From NCBI GenBank assembly GCA_043809315.1, contig JAZDDX010000027.1, forward strand, positions 6,943 through 70,942: a stretch of 64,000 bases of DNA. The letters are read 5' to 3'. Source of the stretch: Pseudomonadota bacterium. Lineage in GTDB: Bacteria; Bdellovibrionota_G; JALEGL01; DATDPG01. Below the pieces are notes generated by a model. The model saw only the letters and a list, made by a program, of their open reading frames with translations. It was not told the origin of the DNA and did no database searches. Positions 8,919 through 37,556 of this stretch are shown piece by piece. Numbering within the stretch: the stretch's first letter is position 1; each line of letters starts with the position of its first letter. The position numbers and the translations under genes are program-made.

Positions 8919-10865
8919 TTGAAAGGAAAAAGCGCGATACTTTGGATTCTTTTGGCCGTCATGGCGGTGGTCGTCTACCACCTGGCAAACCCGTTCGTGC
9001 GAGCAGTGCCGCGCGACCTTCCGTCCAGCGAGTTCCGCGACCAGGTCCGGCGCGGGTTGGTCGAGTCGGTCCGGATCCGCGGCGAGGCGATCGAAGGGGA
9101 CTACCTTACGAAGTTTCCGCCCGAAGCCACCGTCGATAAGGCGGTCTCCGACCTGCCCGGGAAAACGTTTGTCACACGGTGGCTCGGGACCGGGGACGAC
9201 CTGACGAGATTTCTCGAGGAGAACAAGGTTCGAAAGTTCGACGCGATCGCGGAGGAGCGCTCGCCGCTCTGGCAGCAGATCATCCCCGGATTGTCGTTCC
9301 TCTTGCTTGTACTCTTCCTGATCTTCATGTTCCGGCAGATGCAAGCCGGCGGCGGTAAGGCGCTCAGTTTCGGCAAATCCAAGGCCCGGCTTTTGAGTGA
9401 AAGCCCGAAAAAGGTCACGTTCCAGGATGTCGCGGGGATCGACGAGGCGAAAGAGGAGCTCGAGGAGATCATCGACTTCCTCAAGGACCCGAAAAAGTTC
9501 ACGAAGCTCGGCGGGCGGATTCCGAAAGGGGTTCTCCTGGTCGGCGCTCCGGGGACCGGAAAGACGCTCCTTGCGCGAGCGATCGCAGGGGAGGCGGGGG
9601 TTCCCTTCTTCACGATCTCGGGGTCCGATTTCGTCGAGATGTTTGTCGGGGTCGGGGCATCCCGCGTGCGCGATCTTTTCGAACAGGGGAAAAAACACGC
9701 TCCCTGCATCATCTTTATCGACGAAATCGACGCCGTGGGGAGGCACCGGGGAGCGGGCTTGGGCGGCGGGCACGACGAGCGGGAGCAGACATTGAATCAG
9801 TTGCTGGTCGAAATGGACGGATTCGAGTCGAACGAAGGGGTGATCCTGATCGCTGCGACGAACCGGCCGGACGTTCTCGATCCGGCTCTTCTCCGTCCGG
9901 GGCGTTTCGATCGTCACGTCGTGGTACCCAGGCCGGATCTCAAAGGGCGGATCGGGATCCTCGAGGTCCATACCCGGAAGGTTCCATTATCGGACGATGT
10001 GAACGTGGAAGTGTTGGGGCGGGGAACGGCCGGTTTCGCGGGGGCCGATCTCGAGAACATGGTGAACGAAGCGGCGTTGCTGGCTGCCCGGCAGGAAAAG
10101 AAGAGCGTTGCCATGATCGACTTCGAGCGTGCGAAAGACAAGATCATGCTCGGGAAAGAACGAAAGAGCCTTCTGATCTCCGACGAGGAAAAACGGATCA
10201 CCGCCTATCATGAATCGGGGCACACGGTCGTCGCGAAGAAGATCCCGGGGGCCGATCCGGTCCACAAGGTGACGATCATTCCCCGCGGTATGGCGCTGGG
10301 GCTGACCCACCAGATGCCGACCGAGGACAAGTACACGTTGAACCAGACCTCGGCCGAGACCACGATCGCGATCCTGATGGGGGGGCGAGTTGCGGAAGAG
10401 ATCGTGTTCGGGACGCGCACCAACGGCGCCGGAAACGACATCGAGAAGGCGACGGAACTGGCGCGGAAGATGGTCTGCGAGTGGGGGATGAGCGATGCCG
10501 TCGGGCCGCTCGCGTTCGGGCGGAAGGACGAGGAGATCTTCCTGGCGCGGGATTTCACGCGCCATGTGAATTACAGCGAGCAGACGTCGCGACTCATCGA
10601 CGAAGAAATCCGAAACATTGTGATGCGGAATTACAGTCGGACGCGTAAAATTCTGGAGGAGAGCCGGGTTTCCCTCGACCGCGTAGCCGAAGCCTTGCTG
10701 GAATACGAGGTTCTGGAAGCCGAGGATGTCGAAATCCTAATGGCGGGAGGCCCCCTCACGAAACCAAAACCGGCTCCTCGCTTGAGGAAACCGGGAGAAG
10801 CTTCGAAGGCGGGCGAGGAGAATAAACCGGAGCCCGGCTTGGTCCCCGAGCCGGCCGTCGGTTGA
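8919..10865 (+). CDS. ftsH: ATP-dependent zinc metalloprotease FtsH.
   Basis: N-terminal TM segment, AAA+ Walker A (GAPGTGKT) and Walker B (IIFIDEID), SRH, and the HESGH zinc-binding motif. Confidence 0.95.
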
Positions 10866-10878
10866 ACGAGGAGGAGAA

Positions 10879-11694
10879 TTGAAGGGATGGTTCGAGAATC
10901 TGACCGGGTTGCGTGACCTGCTCGACATTCTCGTCGTCGCCGTCCTGATCTACTGGCTCCTCCGTCTCATCCGGGGGACGCGCGCCGTCTACATGCTCTT
11001 CGGTCTGTCGGTAGCCGGGGTGATCTACTGGATCTCCTCTTGGTGGGAGCTCTACACCGTGAACTGGATCTTCTCGAGTTTGTTCTCGAGCCTTCTCTTG
11101 ATCGCGGTGGTCATCTTCCAGAACGACATCCGGCGGGCGCTGACGCAGATCGGGCGATCGCCGATCTTCTCGTTGGTCGCCTCTCCCCAGGAATCGATCG
11201 TCGTCGAGGAGCTGGTCAAAGCGTCCACGTCGCTCGCGAACAAGAAGATCGGGGCGTTGATCGTGATCGAACGAGACGCCAACGTTCTCGATTATGTCGA
11301 CGTCGGCGTGCCTCTCGACGCCGTTGTCTCCAAGGAACTCTTGACCAGTGTTTTTCATCCGGTTTCCCCCCTGCATGACGGGGCGGTCATTCTTCAGAAG
11401 GGGCGGATCACGGCGGCAGGCTGTTTTCTCCCGCTCACGATGAACCCGCGGTTCGGCGTCGAGGTGGGGACGCGGCACCGGGCCGCGATCGGGCTCACGG
11501 AGGAAACCGACGCCGCGGTGATCGTGATTTCGGAAGAAAAGGGGTGGATCTCGCTCGCCTCCGAGGGGCGGATCACGCGCGGGGTGGATGGTGCGGCCCT
11601 CCGGAAGATTCTCCACGGATACCTGCGTCCCCAAGGGTCGATCTACCATCGTTTTTGGAGACGGATCCGCCGGATCCGGGGTGAGGTCGCATGA
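10879..11694 (+). CDS. cdaA: Diadenylate cyclase CdaA (DAC domain, membrane-anchored).
   Basis: Three N-terminal TM helices, a DisA_N domain with DGA and RHR motifs (LHDGAVIL, GTRHRAAIG). Conserved cdaA-cdaR-glmM synteny. Confidence 0.9.
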   Translation: MKGWFENLTGLRDLLDILVVAVLIYWLLRLIRGTRAVYMLFGLSVAGVIYWISSWWELYTVNWIFSSLFSSLLLIAVVIFQNDIRRALTQIGRSPIFSLVASPQESIVVEELVKASTSLANKKIGALIVIERDANVLDYVDVGVPLDAVVSKELLTSVFHPVSPLHDGAVILQKGRITAAGCFLPLTMNPRFGVEVGTRHRAAIGLTEETDAAVIVISEEKGWISLASEGRITRGVDGAALRKILHGYLRPQGSIYHRFWRRIRRIRGEVA

Positions 11695-12611
11695 AGGGGT
11701 GGCTTACCGAACATCCGGTGATGAAGATCGTCTCCCTGATCCTTGCGACTTTACTCTGGGCGTTCGTCCGGGGGGAGAGGCGGATGGAAACGTCGATCGA
11801 GGTGCCGGTCCAGGTGCAGAATCTTCCGGAAAAGTTCATGATCATCGGCGAGATCGATCCCTCGATCAACTTGAGGCTCTCGGGTCCCAAGAGCCGGCTG
11901 GGGCGTCTCGATCCGGCGACCTTTCCGCCGTACGAGCTCGATCTGAAGAACGCGCACCGCGGTTCGAACACGTTCTTCATCCGCGAAGGGGCATTCAAGG
12001 TTCCGTACGGGATCACCGTGATGAGGGTCGTTCCCCCGTCGATCCGCGTGGTGGTGGACGAGGCGGAGGAGAAGTTGGTCCGGATCGAACCCCGCTTTGT
12101 GGACGATCCGGACGAGGGATACGAGGTCGAGAGCTACGAGGTGAAACCGGCCTACACGAAGAAGCGCGGTTCCCGGAAGGATCTGGCGGTCACCCCCTAC
12201 ATCTTCACGGAACCCATCAGTCTGGCCGGGCGGCATGGCAGCTTCTCCGGTGAATATTCGCTGACGTCGGCAACCCCCGGTTCCGACGAGGAGAAAAAGG
12301 TCACGCTCCGGGTCGTTGTGAAGGAAAAGGAGCTTTCGAAGATGTTTCGGGAGGTCCCGGTCCGTGTCACCGGGTTCACGAGCGCCGTCAAGGTCGAGCC
12401 GAGGACCGTTTCGATCCGGGCGCGGGGGCCGGCGGGGAAGGTGACGGCATTCGGGGAGGAGCACCTCGAGATCGAGATCGACGCCCTGAAGTTGGGTCTC
12501 GGGAAGACCCGGCAGAGAGTCGTCCACGTGACCGCCAGGCCGCTCAAACATCCCGGCCTTGAGCTGACGGTCGTTCCTGATACTGTCCGGGTCACGCTGC
12601 TGGCGGAATAG
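11691..12611 (+). CDS. cdaR: CdaA regulatory protein CdaR (YbbR-like domains).
   Basis: ATGA overlap with cdaA, an N-terminal TM helix, YbbR-like repeats, and its position between cdaA and glmM. Confidence 0.8.
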   Translation: MKGWLTEHPVMKIVSLILATLLWAFVRGERRMETSIEVPVQVQNLPEKFMIIGEIDPSINLRLSGPKSRLGRLDPATFPPYELDLKNAHRGSNTFFIREGAFKVPYGITVMRVVPPSIRVVVDEAEEKLVRIEPRFVDDPDEGYEVESYEVKPAYTKKRGSRKDLAVTPYIFTEPISLAGRHGSFSGEYSLTSATPGSDEEKKVTLRVVVKEKELSKMFREVPVRVTGFTSAVKVEPRTVSIRARGPAGKVTAFGEEHLEIEIDALKLGLGKTRQRVVHVTARPLKHPGLELTVVPDTVRVTLLAE

Positions 12612-12620
12612 AGGTCATTC

Positions 12621-13988
12621 ATGGCGGAATCGAGGAAGTTGTTCGGCACGGACGGGATCCGGGGCATGGCGAATTCGGAGCCGATGTCGGTCGATACGAT
12701 TCTTCGGGTCGGTCGGGCGGCCGCGTGCGTCTTCCGGCGGTCGGACGACCGGCGCCACTCGGTCGTGATCGGAAAGGATACGAGGCTCTCCGGATACATG
12801 TTCGAGACGGCGCTCGCCTCCGGACTCTGTTCGATGGGGGTGGACGTCATCCTCGTGGGGCCGGTCCCCACCCCTGGAATTGCTTTTCTAACGACGTCGA
12901 TGCGAACCGATGCCGGCGTCGTGATCTCCGCGTCGCACAATCCTTACAATGACAACGGCATCAAGTTCTTCGGCCCCGACGGGTTCAAGCTGGCCGATGC
13001 GGTCGAGCGATCGATCGAGAAGCTCGTCTTCTCGAACGGGGAACTGGACGAGCGGAGGCCGGAGGCTTCCGAGGTGGGGAAGGCGACGCGCCTCGAAGAC
13101 GCCAAGGGGAGGTACATCACGTACCTGAAGCAGAACTTTCCCCAGGAACACTCCCTGGACGGCCTTAAGATCGTCGTCGACTGCGCGCATGGCGCCACTT
13201 ACAAGATTGCGCCGACGGTATTCGCCGAGTTGGGCGCATCGCTTACCAAGATCGGAATCAAGCCGAACGGAAAGAACATCAACCACCACTGCGGAGCTCT
13301 CCACACCGACAAACTGGCGCAGAAGGTGAAAGAGGTCGGCGCCGATCTCGGGATCGCGTTCGACGGCGATGGCGATCGGGCGATCTTCTGCGATGAGAAC
13401 GGACGTGTGTTCGACGGAGACGACGTTCTGGGGATCCTGGCCCGCCCGATGCTGGCGCACGGCGAGCTGGGAAAGGGTGTGGTCGGCACGGTGATGAGCA
13501 ACTTCGGTCTCGAGCAGTATTTCCGTTCGAACCGGATCCCGTTTTTCCGAGCGCCGGTCGGGGATCGATACGTCGTCGAGATGATGAAAGAGGAAGGGTC
13601 GCTGTTCGGAGGGGAGCCCTCGGGGCATCTGGTGAGCCTGCATCGGAGCACCACCGGAGACGGGATCCTTTCGGCGCTTCTCCTTTTGGGAGAACTTCAA
13701 AGGAGCGATCGCCCTCTCTCGTCGTACGCAAAGCTGATCCCGCGATACCCGCAGGTGATCCGGAATGTCGCGGTCAAGACGAAGCCGTCGTTCGAAAAGC
13801 TCCCGCCGGTCGCGAAGTCGATCCGGGAGGCGGAGAGTCGTTTGAGCGGCACCGGGCGGGTCCTGGTCCGGTACTCCGGGACTGAACCGAAGGCGCGCGT
13901 GATGGTGGAAGGGGAGAACGAAAAGATCGTGAAGCGGCTGGCGGACGAGATCGCGGCCGCCATTCAATCGGAAATCGGGGTGGCGTGA
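12621..13988 (+). CDS. glmM: Phosphoglucosamine mutase.
   Basis: GTDGIRG N-terminus, active-site SASHNP, and four phosphohexomutase domains. Confidence 0.95.
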   Translation: MAESRKLFGTDGIRGMANSEPMSVDTILRVGRAAACVFRRSDDRRHSVVIGKDTRLSGYMFETALASGLCSMGVDVILVGPVPTPGIAFLTTSMRTDAGVVISASHNPYNDNGIKFFGPDGFKLADAVERSIEKLVFSNGELDERRPEASEVGKATRLEDAKGRYITYLKQNFPQEHSLDGLKIVVDCAHGATYKIAPTVFAELGASLTKIGIKPNGKNINHHCGALHTDKLAQKVKEVGADLGIAFDGDGDRAIFCDENGRVFDGDDVLGILARPMLAHGELGKGVVGTVMSNFGLEQYFRSNRIPFFRAPVGDRYVVEMMKEEGSLFGGEPSGHLVSLHRSTTGDGILSALLLLGELQRSDRPLSSYAKLIPRYPQVIRNVAVKTKPSFEKLPPVAKSIREAESRLSGTGRVLVRYSGTEPKARVMVEGENEKIVKRLADEIAAAIQSEIGVA

Positions 13989-28742: not shown

Positions 28743-29494
28743 CGGTAGAAAAAACTCAGGTAGTCGTACAGGTTCGGAAACCATCGGATCATCACCGGCC
28801 CGTACGCGTTTGCGATCGCGTGAAAGACGATCCCGGGGATCAGGGACCCGGTCCGCAGGACGACGATGCCGTTCACGATCCCCAGAACAAGGGGCCCCAA
28901 CGCTAGCCACCCGTGTCCTCCCATGAAGATGAGCGCCGAACCGGCGACCGCAATCCAGGCCGGATAACTTTCGCGCAATCCGCGCAGCAGAATCCCCCGA
29001 AAAAACAGTTCTTCGCAGATCGGAGCAAGGACGATCAGCGTCACGAGATCGGAAGTCGTGAGCGTGCTCCGAAGCGGTCCGCCTCCCCAGAGCGGCTTCG
29101 AAAGAAACGGCCAGATCGAGTCGACCCAGGTCATGAGGAAAACCAGAAGGAGGGTCACGGCGACAGGGCTCAAGCCGATCAGAAGCCCGAGGCCGATCCT
29201 GCGTCCGATTTTTTCTCCGGACAGGCCAATTTTGCGCGATCCGATCCGCTTCCGGCGGAGGATGACGATGGAGGCGAGGAGAAAGAAGACCTGGGGGGAG
29301 AACGGCATGCGGATCCAACCGGAGGAGGGGAAGAAGTACTTGGCGGCCGGCAGGTAGACGAGACCGAAAACGACCAAGGCGGAGACCGGGGCGATCAGGC
29401 CGACGGAGTTCACTCGACCAGATCCCGACTGATGTTCAGATAGAACCACGCGGCGACCAGAAGAAGGATGGAACCCAAGACGATCCGGGTCCAA
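28739..29494 (-). CDS. CPBP (CAAX protease/Abi) family intramembrane metalloprotease.
   Basis: Motifs EELFFRG, FMGGHG and HAIANA, with multiple TM helices. The start is uncertain: the TTG at 29494 overlaps the small upstream ORF, and an alternative ATG lies at ~29308. Confidence 0.65.
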   Translation of the reverse strand: MDPDRLGFHPSSGRRVVLSEHQSGSGRVNSVGLIAPVSALVVFGLVYLPAAKYFFPSSGWIRMPFSPQVFFLLASIVILRRKRIGSRKIGLSGEKIGRRIGLGLLIGLSPVAVTLLLVFLMTWVDSIWPFLSKPLWGGGPLRSTLTTSDLVTLIVLAPICEELFFRGILLRGLRESYPAWIAVAGSALIFMGGHGWLALGPLVLGIVNGIVVLRTGSLIPGIVFHAIANAYGPVMIRWFPNLYDYLSFFYR

Positions 29495-29610
29495 CCCCAG
29501 AAACGGCTCCGGTTCCGTTTCCGTACGTTGGAGATTCCCAGGACCAGGTTGAATAGGCCGATCGAGAGGAGGGCCGTCATGGCGAACATCGTGCCGAGAG
29601 CCTGGTTCAT
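29410..29610 (-). CDS. Hypothetical two-TM small membrane protein (66 aa).
   Basis: Two clear TM helices. The start overlaps the rsmI stop (ATGA-type coupling). Confidence 0.4.
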   Translation of the reverse strand: MNQALGTMFAMTALLSIGLFNLVLGISNVRKRNRSRFWGWTRIVLGSILLLVAAWFYLNISRDLVE

Positions 29611-30308
29611 TCGATCTCGATCTCCTTGATCTTGGAAGGGCCGACGACGACGGTCGCCTCCCCGAGGATCTTGCGTCCGGTCAATCGCGCGGCCACATCC
29701 CGCGCCGTTCCTCGAATCAACTCTTCATGCTGTTTCGTCAGTTCCCGTGCCACGAAAACCATCCGTTCCGGGGCAACCTCCGCCAGCTCGCTCATCGTCC
29801 GCAAGAGGCGGTAGGGGGCCTCGAAGAAAGCGGAAGTATCCTCGCTTGCGGCCATCTGCTCCAATTCCCGGCGGCGAGCCGTTTCCTTCTTGGACAGAAA
29901 TCCGAAAAACCGGAACGGGGAGGCGCGGAATCCGCTGACGGAGAGGGCGGTCGTGATGGCGCTCGGCCCCGGGATCGGAACGACCGTTCCTCCCGAGCGA
30001 TGAACAGCGTCGATCAAGCGGGCGCCGGGGTCGGCGACGGAGGGGGTCCCCGCATCGGTCGCGAGAGCCACATCCTCCCCCCGCTCGAGGGTCTCCAGGA
30101 TGGTCCGGGTGGCCCGTTCCTCCGCCGCCTCGTCGCACCGGAGGAGCGGTTTGGAGAGCCCGAGATGGGTCAGAAGCTTCCGCGTGCGGCGGGTATCCTC
30201 CGCGGCCACAAGGGACGCCGTGCGAAGCGATTCGGCCGCCCGCCCGGAAAGGTCCGAGAGGTTGCCGATCGGGGTGGCGACCACGAAAAGGCGGCCGGAG
30301 GGGTGCAC
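29607..30308 (-). CDS. rsmI: 16S rRNA (cytidine1402-2'-O)-methyltransferase RsmI.
   Basis: RLFVVATPIGNLSDLSGRA...AAEDTRRT matches the RsmI N-terminus. The likely start is a GTG near 30308; the ORF-track extension to 30506 would overlap the divergent lipoprotein gene. Confidence 0.8.
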   Translation of the reverse strand: MHPSGRLFVVATPIGNLSDLSGRAAESLRTASLVAAEDTRRTRKLLTHLGLSKPLLRCDEAAEERATRTILETLERGEDVALATDAGTPSVADPGARLIDAVHRSGGTVVPIPGPSAITTALSVSGFRASPFRFFGFLSKKETARRRELEQMAASEDTSAFFEAPYRLLRTMSELAEVAPERMVFVARELTKQHEELIRGTARDVAARLTGRKILGEATVVVGPSKIKEIEIE

Positions 30309-30366
30309 CCGCCCATTGTTCCGATCTCCTTGAGGAGATGCAAGGCAATCAGTTACACTACAGAGG

Positions 30367-30849
30367 ATGAGATCCTGTTGGCTCCCGGTCCTTCTCACGA
30401 CTTTCCTGGGTGCGGGGTGTACCTCCAGCCCGGGGCAGATCGATGTGACGCTGAACCTCGACGGCACAGTCGTCCAAGCGAACATCCAGGACTTCATCTT
30501 CATCACCTTCGATCCGACCCCCGGATCGACGGCTCCGAAAATTCTCTATCCGTCCGACTGCGTGGGGTGCAACGACGGCGCCGCCGAATGCGATCCTTCG
30601 CTGGCCTGTCTCAAGAAGGACACGACCTGCGGGTTTGCGACGACCCAACGAACGTGGACCCCCCAACTTGATTTTGCCGAATATCCTGCGAAATCGACGA
30701 TCACGTTGGTGGCGTGCGCCCTGGATGCGAACCAAGCTCCCGTGGGGTACGGTTCGACGGCATCGATTCCGAATCAGAACGGTACGAGCGTGACGATCGC
30801 GATGACCGCATCGGCGACCTGCGCGGAGGCCCCGGCGTTATGTCCGTGA
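30367..30849 (+). CDS. Cys-containing secreted lipoprotein, paralogue 1 of 3.
   Basis: Lipobox LGAGC and six Cys. Shares the motifs IQDFIFITF and ILYPSDC with the two downstream paralogues. Confidence 0.55.
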   Translation: MRSCWLPVLLTTFLGAGCTSSPGQIDVTLNLDGTVVQANIQDFIFITFDPTPGSTAPKILYPSDCVGCNDGAAECDPSLACLKKDTTCGFATTQRTWTPQLDFAEYPAKSTITLVACALDANQAPVGYGSTASIPNQNGTSVTIAMTASATCAEAPALCP

Positions 30850-31247
30850 GGCTCACCTTTGTCGCGCTACTGGTGACGGTTCCGTTGCTCGGATGCGGAA
30901 CGAAAGCGGGGCCCGACATCACGTTCTCGATGCCGACCGCTGCTACGGCTTTTGCCGATGCCAACGTCACCGATTTCTATTTCGAGCTGACCAATACGAG
31001 CAGCGCCGATTTGTATTATTTCCCGGACAACTGTCGTGTCACGTCGTTGCAGGCGAATTGCGGCTACACGAGCGCGCAGCGGGGGACGACGGTCACGTTG
31101 GGGGCTCTTCCGTTGAATGCGACCTACCAGGTGGTCGTGAGATTCCGGGATGCGACGGGGAAGATCCTCTACGGCGGGACGTCGGCTTTCGTCAACGACG
31201 GGCACTCCCAGTCGCTGTCGATTTCTGTGGCGGGGGTGACACCATGA
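30840..31247 (+). CDS. Cys-containing secreted lipoprotein, paralogue 2 of 3.
   Basis: ATG at ~30840 (MSVRLTFVALLVTVPLLGCG lipobox) overlaps the previous gene. Motifs VTDFYFELT and LYYFPDNC. Confidence 0.55.
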   Translation: MSVRLTFVALLVTVPLLGCGTKAGPDITFSMPTAATAFADANVTDFYFELTNTSSADLYYFPDNCRVTSLQANCGYTSAQRGTTVTLGALPLNATYQVVVRFRDATGKILYGGTSAFVNDGHSQSLSISVAGVTP

Positions 31248-31789
31248 GGGTGAAAAAAAGTGCATGGCTGATGGGGGTGGCTTTCTTTTCGATCACATGC
31301 AGCAGTTCGCCGACGGCGACGGTCAACATCCGGATCGCGACGAACGGCACGGTGAACCCCCTTCAGCAAATCAAACAGCAGAAGGATGCGGGGCTGTCGC
31401 GCGGGATCTACTTCGAGTTTCGGGAGCTCAAGTGCCCGCCGGTATCGATGGAGGACGTGGTGAGTACGACCGCCGTCGCTCTTTATTATCCGGACTTGAA
31501 CGCACAGGCGAACATTGATGGGACGAGCCCGGTTTCGTCCACGTACGAGATCGACACCTCGGCGCTGAAGCCGAACGCCTACTATCGTGTGGCGATGTTC
31601 GCCCTGAACGTTTTCGACAACAACAAACCGTTTCAAGGCGTTGCAGAATGTCCGTTGAATCTCGCGCTCGGAAACAGGAACCTGATCAACATCTGTTTCG
31701 GCGACACCGGGATCCCCCTGACCTGTCTGGGGACCGTCCCGGCGCTTGCACAGTGCCCCTCGATGACGCCGGCGAGTTGCGCGCCGTAG
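31244..31789 (+). CDS. Cys-containing secreted lipoprotein, paralogue 3 of 3.
   Basis: ATGA overlap at ~31244 and signal peptide MRVKKSAWLMGVAFFSITCSS. Motifs IYFEFRE and ALYYPD. Confidence 0.55.
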   Translation: MRVKKSAWLMGVAFFSITCSSSPTATVNIRIATNGTVNPLQQIKQQKDAGLSRGIYFEFRELKCPPVSMEDVVSTTAVALYYPDLNAQANIDGTSPVSSTYEIDTSALKPNAYYRVAMFALNVFDNNKPFQGVAECPLNLALGNRNLINICFGDTGIPLTCLGTVPALAQCPSMTPASCAP

Positions 31790-33394
31790 CTATTCCTCTT
31801 CGGACTTGAGCGGGGCGATCACGACCGGTGTTCGGCTTTCCCCGGCCGGAGTGAACTCGTGCCCGGTCAGGTTGATCTGGTAGTGCTCCGTATGGAAGTT
31901 CGCCTGTTCGCGGACGACGATGCTCCGCCCCGAGCGGTTCTCGAGATCGAGCAGAAGGTCGTACTCCTCCTGTTTCAAGATCACCGAAACGTTGGGGTGC
32001 GCCACGATTTCGACGTTCCGGTGGGAATCCTTCTTTTCAATCTCGTGCGAAAGCTTTCGGAGGATGTCGTACGCGACCGTTCGTCTCGACCGGTGGAAGC
32101 CGCGTCCCTCGCAGTTCGAGCAGACCTCGCCCAGTTGCCGGGAGAGGTTCTCGCGTGTCCGTTTCCGGGTCATTTCGACGAGTCCCAGCTCCGAGATCTG
32201 GAGGACGTTTGTCCTCGCTTTGTCGTTGGCGAGCGCGTCTTCCAACGCCCGGTAGACCTTCTCGCGGTTCGTTTTCCGGTCCATGTCGATCGTGTCGAGG
32301 ATGATCAGCCCCCCGATGTTCCGGAGGCGGAGTTGCGCCACGATCTCCTTCACCGCTTCGAGGTTGACCTTGAGGATCGTCTCTTCCAGGTTTTTCGATC
32401 CGACGAACCTGCCGCTGTTGACGTCGATCGAGGTGAGCGCCTCGGTCTGGTCGATCACAAGATACCCGCCGGATTTGAGCCAGACCTTCCGGCCGAGGGC
32501 GCGGTCGATCTGCGGCTCGATCTTGTCGAAATCGAAGATCGGCTCGACCCCCTCGTAATGCGTGATCTTCCGTTTCCGTTTCGGCAGGAATTGTCCGACG
32601 AACTGTTTGATCTGCCGGAACGCGTTCCGGTCGTCGACCACCAGCTCATCGACATCATCGGTGAAGAAATCGCGGACCGATCTCATGACGAGGCTTAAAT
32701 CCTCATGGGCGAGGGAGGGGGCCTTCATCCCTTGCCGCCGGCGCAAGACTTTGATCCAGAGGCGTTCCAGGTAGGCGACTTCCTGCTGGATGTTCTTGTC
32801 CGGCTGTCCGGCCGCCGCCGTCCGAACGATGAACCCCCCGTCGGTGGTTTGAGTTGTTTTGACGAGGTCCTTCAGGCGCCGCCGTTCCTCCTCGCTCTCG
32901 ATTTTCCGCGACACTCCGATATGGGCGACCGTCGGCATGTAGACGAGGTGCCGACCGGGTAAGGAGACATGCGACGTGAGCCGCGCCCCCTTGGTGCCGA
33001 TCGGGTCTTTGGCGACCTGGACCAGAACATCCTGTCCCTCCTTCAGGAGATCCTGAATCTGGACACGCTGGGCGGGGCGCTTGCGCCGCTTTTCCTCCTC
33101 GACCTCTTTCTGGTTGAAAGCGTCGCCGTACTCCTCGAAAAAGTCGGTGACGTAGAGGAACGCGGCCCGCTCCAGGCCGATATCGACGAATGCCGCCTGC
33201 ATCCCCGGAAGGACCCGGACGACTTTGCCTTTGTAGATGTTTCCGACGATCCCGCGCTCACGTCGCCGTTCGATGTACAGCTCCGCCAGCTTGTCGTTTT
33301 CCATGACCGCGACGCGCACTTCCTGCGGCGTCGCGTTCAGCACTAAGCGAGAAGTAATTCCCACAGCCCGCCTCCATTCGTATGTGAGGCGCAA
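31790..33394 (-). CDS. rng: Ribonuclease G (RNase E/G family).
   Basis: S1 domain plus RNase E/G catalytic domain (ATPQEVRVAVMENDKLAELYIER, GLIILDTIDM). Confidence 0.85.
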   Translation of the reverse strand: MRLTYEWRRAVGITSRLVLNATPQEVRVAVMENDKLAELYIERRRERGIVGNIYKGKVVRVLPGMQAAFVDIGLERAAFLYVTDFFEEYGDAFNQKEVEEEKRRKRPAQRVQIQDLLKEGQDVLVQVAKDPIGTKGARLTSHVSLPGRHLVYMPTVAHIGVSRKIESEEERRRLKDLVKTTQTTDGGFIVRTAAAGQPDKNIQQEVAYLERLWIKVLRRRQGMKAPSLAHEDLSLVMRSVRDFFTDDVDELVVDDRNAFRQIKQFVGQFLPKRKRKITHYEGVEPIFDFDKIEPQIDRALGRKVWLKSGGYLVIDQTEALTSIDVNSGRFVGSKNLEETILKVNLEAVKEIVAQLRLRNIGGLIILDTIDMDRKTNREKVYRALEDALANDKARTNVLQISELGLVEMTRKRTRENLSRQLGEVCSNCEGRGFHRSRRTVAYDILRKLSHEIEKKDSHRNVEIVAHPNVSVILKQEEYDLLLDLENRSGRSIVVREQANFHTEHYQINLTGHEFTPAGESRTPVVIAPLKSEEE

Positions 33395-35817: not shown

Positions 35818-36987
35818 CAGGCGGGGGATTAAGGTCAGCCTCGTCGCCGCGGCCTCCTCCCGGCTCTCCTGCGGTTGGCGTGGATTTCAGCGTATTGTCC
35901 GCCCGCGCCGCCTATCGCCTTATTCCCTTCGGCGATCCCTCTTCGTCCTTTAAGATCGGACCTTGAGGTCTTCGGAGGGCGGGGCGCTTCGGTTCAACCC
36001 GAAACGATCCGCTCAGATCCTTCGTCTCCGCTTCAGAGCCTGTCTCCCTTACCTGGAGCCCACCGTTGCCGGCGGGATCCTCGTTTGAGGTTCATGGCCC
36101 CTTCGACATTTTCCGAATTCCCGCGGGTCCTTGACCCGTAATCCATCCGGCGGGCCCGGGGGGGGTAGATCCACCTCGGGAACCAGCGGGAATCCTTAAG
36201 AGGTATCTTTCAACCTCCGATGTCCTGGGGTGCCTTCCCCTTCGAAGCTTTCCGCCCGCGCGTCGATCCGGGTTCCCTTACGGGCTCCCGCTCCTCCCGT
36301 ACCGTTTGTCTCCGACGAACCGTCGAGTGGTTCGTCGGCTTGAAGTCCGGTTTCGGAGGGTTCATCCCGCCGCCGAGCCGGCGCGGTTGAAGGGGAATTA
36401 TTCCTTTCAACCCACCCGAGCTCCCTTGGGGTTTCGGGTCTCTCGGGTTCTCTCTCCGTCATCGCCGATCGGGTTTCACCCCGATCTGCCTCTCCTGCCG
36501 TTGCACCTCGCCCCCTCTTCGCAGAGGTTCGATCGAGAGTGCCGGCTTCAAAGGTTTGAGCCGCTGACGGTTTGGCGTTTCACTCAACCGAGTGCGCCGA
36601 CCCGTTGGACCTTTTTCACCAATCTCTTGGTGCCACATCGGACGGCCCCCGTCCGTGGGTTCGCGCTATGTAGCGAGCGTTTCTTCCAGGGTCAACGAAA
36701 GAGATGAAAAAAATTGAACGAACGAGATTCGTGCACGAATCTTCTTCGTGCATCATCGACAAGTGTGCTTCGTAATCGACGCGAAGCCCGGAGCGATACG
36801 ATTGGATACGGCTTTCCGAGCGATGATGGATTGAGAACACATGCCCGTTGGACGATCCTCGAATGTCGAGCGCGCGATTGTTAAGCCGGGGTCTTGCGAA
36901 AGATCGCTTGTCAGAGCCCCGAGTGGAGTGGAGTTGCGAGCGAAAATCAATTTGAACTGCGGAGTCTCCGTGGGAATTCGGAAGTCG

Positions 36988-37016
36988 TTGCTGTTGCTAG
37001 GTCGTTGCGATATATA
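36988..37016 (+). promoter_or_regulatory. Candidate sigma70-type promoter for tRNA-Val (TTGCTG, 17 nt spacer, TATATA).
   Basis: -35 TTGCTG at ~36988, 17-nt spacer, -10 TATATA at ~37011, about 10 nt upstream of the mature tRNA 5' end. Confidence 0.4.
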
Positions 37017-37026
37017 CGCGCGCCAT

Positions 37027-37101
37027 GGGCGATTAACTCAGCGGGAGAGTGCCATCCTCACACGGTGGAAGTCACTGGTTCGAATCCAGTATCGCCCACC
37101 A
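37027..37101 (+). tRNA. tRNA-Val (anticodon CAC), 75 nt including the encoded CCA.
   Basis: Manual fold. Acceptor GGGCGAT/ATCGCCC, U8, D-stem ACTC/GAGT, anticodon stem CCATC/GGTGG, loop CTCACAC (U33, CAC, A37), T-stem ACTGG/CCAGT, T-loop TTCGAAT, discriminator A, CCA. Confidence 0.85.
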
Positions 37102-37104
37102 ACT

Positions 37105-37518
37105 TCACTCCCCCATCACCTTGACGATCACCCGTTTTTTCCGCTGCCCGTCAAATTCCGCGTAATAGACCTGCTGCCAGGGGCCGAGGTCGAGTCTCCC
37201 CTTCGTGATCGGGACGATCACTTCGTGGCCGATCAAGAGGCTCTTCAAATGACTGTCGCCGTTCGATTCGCCGGTCCGGTGGTGGCGGTACCCCTCCCTG
37301 AAAGGGGCGAGTTTCTCCGCCCATTCGTCGATATCGGCGATCAGGCCGTCTTCGGCGTCGTTCACGTAAACCCCGGCGGTGATGTGCATCGCCGAGACGA
37401 GAACCATCCCCTCCTGGACCTTGGACTTCCGGACTGCCTCCTCCACGTCGTCCGTGATCCGGACGTACTCGCGGTGTTTTTCGGTGTTGAACGTCAGGTA
37501 CTCCGTATGAGATTTCAT
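37105..37518 (-). CDS. yjbQ: YjbQ family protein (secondary thiamine-phosphate synthase, UPF0047).
   Basis: Full-length similarity to YjbQ (ITDDVEEAV...[20 protein letters not shown]...GHEVIVPI). The stop lies 3 nt after the tRNA. Confidence 0.8.
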
Positions 37519-37556
37519 GGTCCCCCCTTTTAAGATAGGTTGGCTCCGGCGACAAC

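Follow-up and report, generated by a model that had tools for sequence, protein, structure and literature searches.

The stretch of DNA analysed here as a whole, hereafter the window, is 64 kb long and contains three consecutive small genes, referred to as A, B and C, that are transcribed in the same direction and that lie between rsmI, from which they diverge, and rng, with which they converge. The relevant features, with the two flanking genes listed for context only, are as follows:

29607-30308, minus strand: rsmI, encoding a 16S rRNA 2'-O-methyltransferase-type protein with a TP_methylase domain; divergent neighbour
30309-30366, no strand assigned: divergent intergenic region between rsmI and A, 58 nt
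30315-30320, minus strand: -10-like hexamer AACAAT (ATTGTT as written on the plus strand), 6 nt before the rsmI start (GTG, 30308)
30325-30338: palindrome TCTCC-TTGA-GGAGA in the rsmI-A spacer
30330-30335, plus strand: -35-like hexamer TTGAGG, from sequence reading
30354-30359, plus strand: -10-like hexamer TACACT, 7 nt before the ATG of A
30367-30849, plus strand: gene A, an ORF encoding a predicted 160-residue lipoprotein precursor
30367-30420, plus strand: predicted signal peptide of A with lipobox cysteine Cys18 (LGAG-C)
30840-31247, plus strand: gene B, an ORF encoding a predicted 135-residue lipoprotein precursor, a paralog of A
30840-30849, plus strand: overlap of A and B, 10 nt, ATGTCCGTGA
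30840-30896, plus strand: predicted signal peptide of B with Cys19 (PLLG-C)
31244-31789, plus strand: gene C, an ORF encoding a predicted 181-residue lipoprotein-type precursor
31244-31247, plus strand: overlap of B and C, 4 nt, ATGA
31244-31300, plus strand: predicted signal peptide of C with Cys19 (S-I-T-C, atypical in having Thr at position -1)
31790-33394, minus strand: rng, encoding an RNase E/G family protein with RNase_E_G and RNase_E_G_Thio domains; convergent neighbour

This layout bears out the original prediction of a tandem, coupled trio, both as regards the three plus-strand ORFs and the 10-nt and 4-nt overlaps that join them, while the identities proposed for the divergent and convergent neighbours were confirmed by the domain matches given above. 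In the 10-nt overlap, the sequence encoding the final Cys-Pro and stop codon of A is read in another frame as Met-Ser-Val at the start of B. At the other end of the trio, the stop codon of C (31787-31789) and that of the convergent rng (31790-31792) are directly adjacent. The surroundings are those of an ordinary chromosome, comprising ftsH, cdaA-ybbR-glmM, pdxJ, a miaB-like gene, rnc and pepA, together with uvrC, comEC, psd, glycine-cleavage genes and genes encoding a CPBP protease, an acylphosphatase, an outer membrane protein beta-barrel and an M23 peptidase.

Homologs of the three proteins were sought in several sequence collections. A word-indexed search of 5.8 billion proteins returned only the proteins of the window itself and a single A homolog, encoded on a 1.5-kb contig (L001) where A, B and C follow one another in the same way, at 32-35% identity (35% for B, E 3e-18; 32% for C, E 4e-26). 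Overall, pairwise BLASTP comparison of each window protein with its ortholog gave E values of 3e-18 to 8e-26. In L001, the operon ends in a fusion to a pilin-like gene. A metagenome scan added two further loci, namely L002 and L003, the latter containing rsmI, A, B and the beginning of C, whereas a contig scan with an early alignment of A yielded no matches and one with Rng returned a single, uninformative contig end (L004). An exact look-up with the sequence of window A returned no record. Searching 1.84 billion cluster representatives by HMMER with a profile of A yielded 43 matches, of which 27 reached E<=1e-10. Some 40 of these matches are of the lipoprotein type and 134-221 residues long. 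Three large repeat proteins (P0038, P0039 and P0045) were rejected as relatives of A, as they contain unrelated domains and look like low-complexity artefacts.

Genomic contexts were recovered for ten of the A-profile matches. In total, the A-B-C trio was found in 12 other metagenomic or MAG contigs, with 28-51% identity to the window proteins, and its position between rsmI and rng is kept in nine of these 12. The complete order, with rsmI on the minus strand, A, B and C on the plus strand, and rng followed by an acylphosphatase gene on the minus strand, was seen in L002, L005, L006, L007, L008, L010 (part of a 2.92-Mb contig), L012 and the contig encoding P0040. In L009 and L011, the trio is instead divergent from another conserved gene, encoding a secreted protein of about 391 residues. 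That the trio is found in this different genomic context indicates that it behaves as a unit that is independent of rsmI and rng. The family HMMs detected a single copy of each gene per trio locus, and no extra copies elsewhere in the window. As such, the variation in copy number that was to be looked for according to the original prediction was not seen among the 12 related loci, where the trio is constant, and the one exception is L013, a more distant relative of 36% GC in which only A sits between rsmI and rng. In that organism, A may function on its own, or else B and C may be located elsewhere in the genome.

The overlaps between the genes recur as well. The 10-nt overlap of A and B is present in L001, L002, L003 and the P0040 contig, while L006, L007 and L008 contain a 4-nt ATGA overlap at this junction instead; the 4-nt overlap of B and C is found in L006, L007, L008, L009, L010, L012 and the P0040 contig. 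The loci with such overlaps, of 4 or 10 nt, range from 43% to 60% GC. At the same time, the trio has diverged approximately twice as fast as the neighbouring genes, given that identity to the window is 31-51% for A, B and C, as compared to 62-87% for Rng, 45-69% for RsmI and 45-64% for PepA. Such rapid evolution would be typical of envelope-exposed, non-enzymatic proteins. Depositors assigned the carriers to Bdellovibrionota, Bdellovibrionales, Deltaproteobacteria, 'Pseudomonadota bacterium' or simply 'bacterium'. Judged by this pattern of sequence conservation, A, B and C are real genes, and as a unit they are conserved in a Bdellovibrionota-like lineage that is uncultured.

At the N-terminus of each of A, B and C, a short, basic n-region precedes a hydrophobic segment, after which comes a cysteine (C18 in A, C19 in B and C19 in C). 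This cysteine is invariant in every aligned ortholog (40 for A, nine for B and eight for C). The lipoprotein class was defined by a lipobox of the form [LVI][ASTVI][GAS]-C ending the signal peptide, and a PROSITE-PS51257-like pattern was matched by 31 of 40 A, six of 12 B and seven of 11 C sequences. In its strict form, this pattern is matched by A of the window but not by B or C. Deviations are found at position -1, which is Phe in B of L001-L003 and Thr in C of the window, unlike most C orthologs, where the usual Ser, Gly or Ala is present. The residue at position +2, following the cysteine predicted to be lipid-modified, is never Asp. A signal peptide ending in a lipobox-type cysteine is seen in all three proteins, with the caveat of the atypical Thr at position -1 in C, and A, B and C are described here as predicted lipoproteins that would be modified at that cysteine. 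The secreted or cell-surface location originally suggested for the products is plausible, although anchoring to the outer membrane facing the periplasm is at least as likely.

Almost every base of the 58-nt spacer between rsmI and A is conserved in L007 and L008, and the spacer is still recognizable in L010 and L012. A hexamer of the form TAnnnT is positioned 6-7 nt ahead of the A start codon in the window (TACACT), in L002 and L003 (TACAAT), in L005, where A starts with GTG (TAGAAT), and in L012 (TAAACT), and is likewise present in L007, L008 and L010. A mirror-image hexamer, corresponding to AACAAT in the window, precedes the rsmI start by 6-7 nt. A lacks a Shine-Dalgarno sequence at the proper spacing. 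Together, these elements suggest that the divergent rsmI and A mRNAs would both be leaderless, with B and C then being translated by coupling. A generic promoter and terminator scan detected nothing above shuffle expectation in the operon and did not call the TACACT site, and an Rfam scan of the region revealed no RNA family. A 10-codon upstream ORF (30338-30370), the stop codon of which overlaps the ATG of A, was also considered and dismissed, since L007 and L008 preserve the nucleotides but not the frame.

The three genes had been described as paralogs. Single-sequence BLASTP among A, B and C linked only A and B, and weakly so. When full-length profiles were compared, all three pairs looked strong, yet the score came largely from the signal peptides. 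Accordingly, paralogy was assessed using hhalign with the signal peptides cut off, such that only the mature parts were aligned. In this manner, A and B were matched with a probability of 97% (E 6e-11; 97-98.5% when the full-length comparison is included), whereas B and C gave a probability of 5-14% (P 0.002-0.007) and A and C a P value of 0.02-0.03. Combining A and B against C led to a probability of 34% (P 4e-4) over 41 columns, corresponding to strands 4-6. Likewise, the HMMs of A and B cross-match one another (the A HMM detects B of the window with E 5e-7) but not C. The motifs DF[IY]F[IE] and Y[YF]P[SD][DN]C, thought to be shared by the trio, are present in A and B, while C has only partial versions, namely GIYFEF and a YYPDLN lacking the cysteine. 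Still, C contains elements that are co-linear with those of A and B (YFxF, YYP, YRVxMxA and N...ICFG), and its C-terminal tail, Cys-x9-Cys-Pro, is reminiscent of the Cys-x6-Cys-Pro tail of A. On the strength of these profile comparisons, A and B are true paralogs, so that the claim of three paralogs stands for this pair; it is not borne out for C, for which no significant mature-part similarity was found and which may be a very divergent relative.

The mature part of A contains eight cysteines (C65, C68, C75, C81, C88, C117, C152 and C159), and the protein ends in LCP. All members of the A family have C18, C65 and N136, and at least 90% of them have C81, C88, C117, C152, C159, P62 and G129. 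Of 40 A sequences, 39 have an even number of cysteines in the mature part. Moreover, C68 and C75 come and go together, being jointly present in 14 of the 40 members and jointly absent in 25. In B, the mature part contains two conserved cysteines (C65 and C74), a number that is constant in all aligned orthologs. Finally, the mature part of C contains six cysteines in the window and either four or six in the aligned orthologs, with C136, C151, C161 and C171 being invariant and C64 present only in those orthologs that also contain a cysteine in the C-terminal extension (C179 in the window). Even cysteine numbers, together with the paired gain and loss of cysteines, point to structural disulfides and hence to an extracytoplasmic location.

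AlphaFold2 modelling of A, using an alignment of 42 sequences, yielded an all-beta sandwich with a pLDDT of 87.6 and a pTM of 0.79; with only two sequences, a poor model was obtained (pLDDT 55.9). The main strands of the model correspond to residues 24-31, 42-48, 59-61, 111-119, 125-130 and 140-147, and a cysteine-rich excursion is formed by residues 62-100. The earlier suggestion of a disulfide-stabilized beta-sandwich is thus supported for A, the one member of the trio that was modelled, by the confidence of the model and by the paired, conserved cysteines. Nothing in the trio proteins resembled a catalytic motif; indeed, invariance is confined to cysteines and to a proline, a glycine and an asparagine located in turns.

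None of the three proteins could be assigned to a known family, in agreement with what had been noted from the sequence. No trio member was matched in Pfam or NCBIfam, PADLOC returned nothing, a profile search of PDB sequences gave no match at E<=1, and in PHROGs, C alone obtained a match, at chance level (E 0.043). Structural comparison of the A model using Foldseek likewise yielded nothing at E<=1e-3, with the best probabilities being those of FimB/Mfa2-like proteins and of 5wec, while viral folds in BFVD were matched at E>=3e-3 in all cases, these being uninformative tail-fibre-like sandwiches. Fibronectin type III and generic Ig-like domains show no sequence relationship to the trio. Fibronectin type III domains are usually modules of larger proteins, rather than stand-alone lipoproteins with one to four disulfides.

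Among the known lipoproteins that come closest, ExsB of the Pseudomonas aeruginosa type III secretion system (2yjl) and the Vibrio cholerae type II secretion system 'alternative pilotin' in 5wec show 8-10% identity and are not matched by sequence profiles. They differ from the trio in being encoded by single genes within secretion-system clusters, as opposed to three coupled genes in a housekeeping neighbourhood, and from A in that the latter contains the cysteine-rich insert (residues 62-100) and a presumably disulfide-locked C-terminal tail. Equating 5wec with AspS was considered and dropped, since the published AspS structure is of the alpha/beta type (PMC3542185). The type VI secretion system component TssJ is a lipoprotein of the outer membrane that folds as a two-sheet beta-sandwich, as proposed in the working model for the trio, yet it appears far down the Foldseek list for A (3zhn, E 0.28, probability 0.13), and no type VI secretion genes lie near the trio. 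The protruding loop and the helical domain specific to TssJ have no evident counterpart in the trio. Both ExsB and TssJ have been described as transthyretin-fold lipoproteins that dock onto or associate with macromolecular machines of the envelope (PMC3213119). The likeness of the trio to lipoproteins of the ExsB/TssJ type would lie in fold and lifestyle, as small sandwich-type lipoproteins, and not in family membership.

These observations are best combined by assuming that the trio corresponds to a stoichiometric, lipid-anchored and non-enzymatic complex of the cell envelope, expressed from a single operon, a reading to which a probability of roughly one half is assigned. According to this model, all three proteins would leave the cytoplasm through the Sec pathway and then undergo cleavage and lipid modification at the conserved signal-peptide cysteine. 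In the oxidizing periplasm, each protein would fold into a compact domain stabilized by disulfides, four in A, one in B and three in C, with A and B forming paralogous beta-sandwiches of seven to eight strands, similar to Ig or transthyretin domains, and C serving as a third component with, at best, weak co-linear similarity to the other two. Translational coupling would lead to the three proteins being made in roughly equal amounts, and these would assemble into a lipid-anchored hetero-complex, most likely on the side of the outer membrane that faces the periplasm, where the module would act as a binding or scaffolding unit. The conservation of stop/start overlaps across very divergent relatives suggests translational coupling and joint action of the products as a complex, the formation of which is inferred from this gene coupling. 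Points that weigh against the model are the atypical residues at position -1 of the lipobox in some members, the presence of A alone between rsmI and rng in L013, and the lack of secretin, pilus or secretion-system genes near the trio in the window. The module is read as a binding or scaffolding unit because no catalytic-looking residues were seen, and a scaffold role is further suggested by the closest structural neighbours, ExsB and TssJ, docking onto envelope-spanning machines. Lipidation, outer-membrane location, complex formation and scaffold role are all put forward as proposed features of the trio. What is shown is the existence and conservation of the genes, the geometry of their overlaps, the paralogy of A and B, the fold of A and the distribution of the cysteines.

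Other readings of the trio were weighed against the same evidence. The three proteins could be pilotin-like or docking outer-membrane lipoproteins that serve a machine encoded elsewhere, such as a type IV pilus or the secretin of a type II secretion system. Although ExsB, the 5wec lipoprotein and TssJ act in this way and the fold ranking of A and the single pilin neighbour in L001 point in the same direction, this reading seems unlikely. No secretin, pilus or other secretion-system gene was found near the trio, be it among the 40 large ORFs of the window, as examined by Pfam scan, or, for secretin and secretion-system genes, among the called genes of nine related loci.

It is quite improbable that A, B and C are instead surface adhesins or fibre subunits, either flipped to the cell surface or polymerizing like the type V pilins of Bacteroidota. 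The latter are, it is true, also lipoprotein precursors encoded by tandem paralogous genes. Yet type V pilins and their anchors (Mfa1, Mfa2 and FimB-like proteins; 5nf3, 5nfi, 3up6 and 3r4r) are proteins of 270-500 residues with two transthyretin-like domains and a C-terminal donor strand, polymerizing by donor-strand exchange once a protease has removed the N-terminal strand, whereas mature A, B and C, of 116-162 residues, each consist of a single domain, lack pilin elements and are found outside Bacteroidota. Specifically, A is single-domain in the AlphaFold2 model, the Cys-x6-9-Cys-Pro tails of A and C, being disulfide-locked, would be ill-suited to providing a free donor strand, and no usher, sortase or protease partner is encoded nearby. 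A broader version of these ideas, in which the trio is the outer-membrane module of a lineage-specific envelope-spanning machine, be it a three-component pilotin or docking set for a type IV pilus or a secretion secretin, or a lipoprotein-derived surface fibre comparable to type V pili but made of single-domain subunits, is something of a long shot. If it were true, the pilin-like gene in L001 would be the remnant of a link to a pilus or fibre.

There is a similarly small chance that the three are independent periplasmic proteins that bind or buffer Ca2+, another metal or redox equivalents, sharing an operon but forming no complex. A DxDxDG-like loop of the Ca2+ type (e.g., LDQDGNGQPD) does occur in every aligned B ortholog other than B of the window (in an alignment of nine sequences), yet its absence from window B speaks against such a role. 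So does the behavior of C68, which completes a CxxC motif in A but is missing from the 25 members noted above and is always paired with C75, as expected of a structural disulfide. The CueP score, moreover, was at background level. Lastly, that the genes are spurious ORFs in GC-rich sequence, as might be thought from the many long ORFs that overlap them in other frames and from the lack of a database family, is refuted by conservation, with orthologs of the same order, overlaps and cysteine positions occurring in genomes of 36-60% GC at E values as low as 1e-26, and by the confident model of A.

Returning to the envelope complex, the trio as it now stands is a genuine lineage-restricted operon, the families it encodes being previously undescribed and their beta-sandwich fold ordinary. 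Two or three protein families new to Pfam and NCBIfam are thereby defined, and the trio appears to be an envelope module that is core and vertically inherited in a little-studied lineage, as yet uncultured, which depositors assign to Bdellovibrionota. By itself, the trio answers no long-standing question, being a 'conserved hypothetical' that is well supported and has been assigned a fold. Should the complex be real, it would represent a lineage-specific piece of outer-membrane architecture and offer a handle on the envelope of these organisms, in the form of a marker operon, antigens or perhaps a partner for a secretion machine or pilus. The A, B and C proteins of the window correspond to locus tags V1495_08095 to V1495_08105, from a MAG labelled 'Pseudomonadota bacterium'.

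Examination of the DNA surrounding A, B and C, the three overlapping lipoprotein-type genes, revealed the following features in the window:

8919-13988: ftsH, then a cdaA (DAC domain)-ybbR-glmM cluster
29410-29610, - strand: conserved ORF of 60-69 aa with two hydrophobic segments, between rsmI and a CPBP (Rce1-like) protease gene
30309-30366: conserved spacer between the divergent genes rsmI and A
31787-31792: stop codons of the convergent genes C and rng, directly adjoining
37027-37101: tRNA-Val (CAC), with no other RNA gene detected across the window

The rsmI-A spacer has a counterpart in seven of the related metagenomic loci, namely, L002, L003, L005, L007, L008, L010 and L012. Hexamers resembling a -10 element lie 6-7 nt 5' of both divergent start codons; in the window, these are TACACT ahead of the ATG of A and, on the opposite strand, AACAAT ahead of the GTG of rsmI at 30308. 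The window spacer also contains the perfect palindrome TCTCC-TTGA-GGAGA. This arrangement suggests that rsmI and A are expressed as two leaderless transcripts, arranged back to back. At the other end of the trio, the abutting stop codons of C and rng leave no intergenic spacer in the window and no space for terminators, such that the two convergent transcripts must overlap.

P0026, an A-family protein of 221 aa in ENA, carries a 70-residue N-terminal extension that corresponds to read-through of the rsmI-A spacer and of rsmI in antisense; this extension is a gene-calling artefact, and the same long false ORF is found in the window at 29727-30671 (+). A 230-aa ORF at 36841-37533, a crude call that overlaps tRNA-Val, is probably spurious as well.

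The small ORF at 29410-29610 overlaps the end of rsmI by 4 nt, and homologs occupy the equivalent position in L005, L006, L008, L010, L012 and L013. No Pfam match was recorded for these homologs beside rsmI.

Within the trio, B of the window (30840-31247) lacks a DxDxDG-like loop of some 12 residues, resembling a Ca2+ site, that each of the other eight B orthologs in the alignment carries. The surroundings of the trio vary between loci. In a divergent subgroup, it lies apart from rsmI and rng:

L009, 3-1815
L011, 5717-8451

Both loci share an upstream CGGTGTCAAGC motif and, divergent from the trio, a gene for a conserved secreted protein of about 391 aa and unknown function (34% identity between the two); L011 also has a gene with an AMIN domain some 2 kb away. 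L001 is the only locus where a pilin-like gene replaces rng after the trio, with a type IV pilin/pseudopilin-like N-terminus (MNQKKAFTLIELMVVIVIIGILTAV; 1436-1512) starting one base past the C stop and the contig terminating there. In L013 (7001-7645), from a 36%-GC relative (GCA_022763185.1), A stands alone between rsmI and rng, and neither B nor C is present within ±7 kb; Rng here is a 624-aa protein with a long C-terminal extension rich in Lys and Ser.

Finally, the cdaA-ybbR-glmM cluster is a c-di-AMP synthase operon, of a kind best known from Firmicutes, found here in a genome labelled Pseudomonadota/Bdellovibrionota by its depositors.
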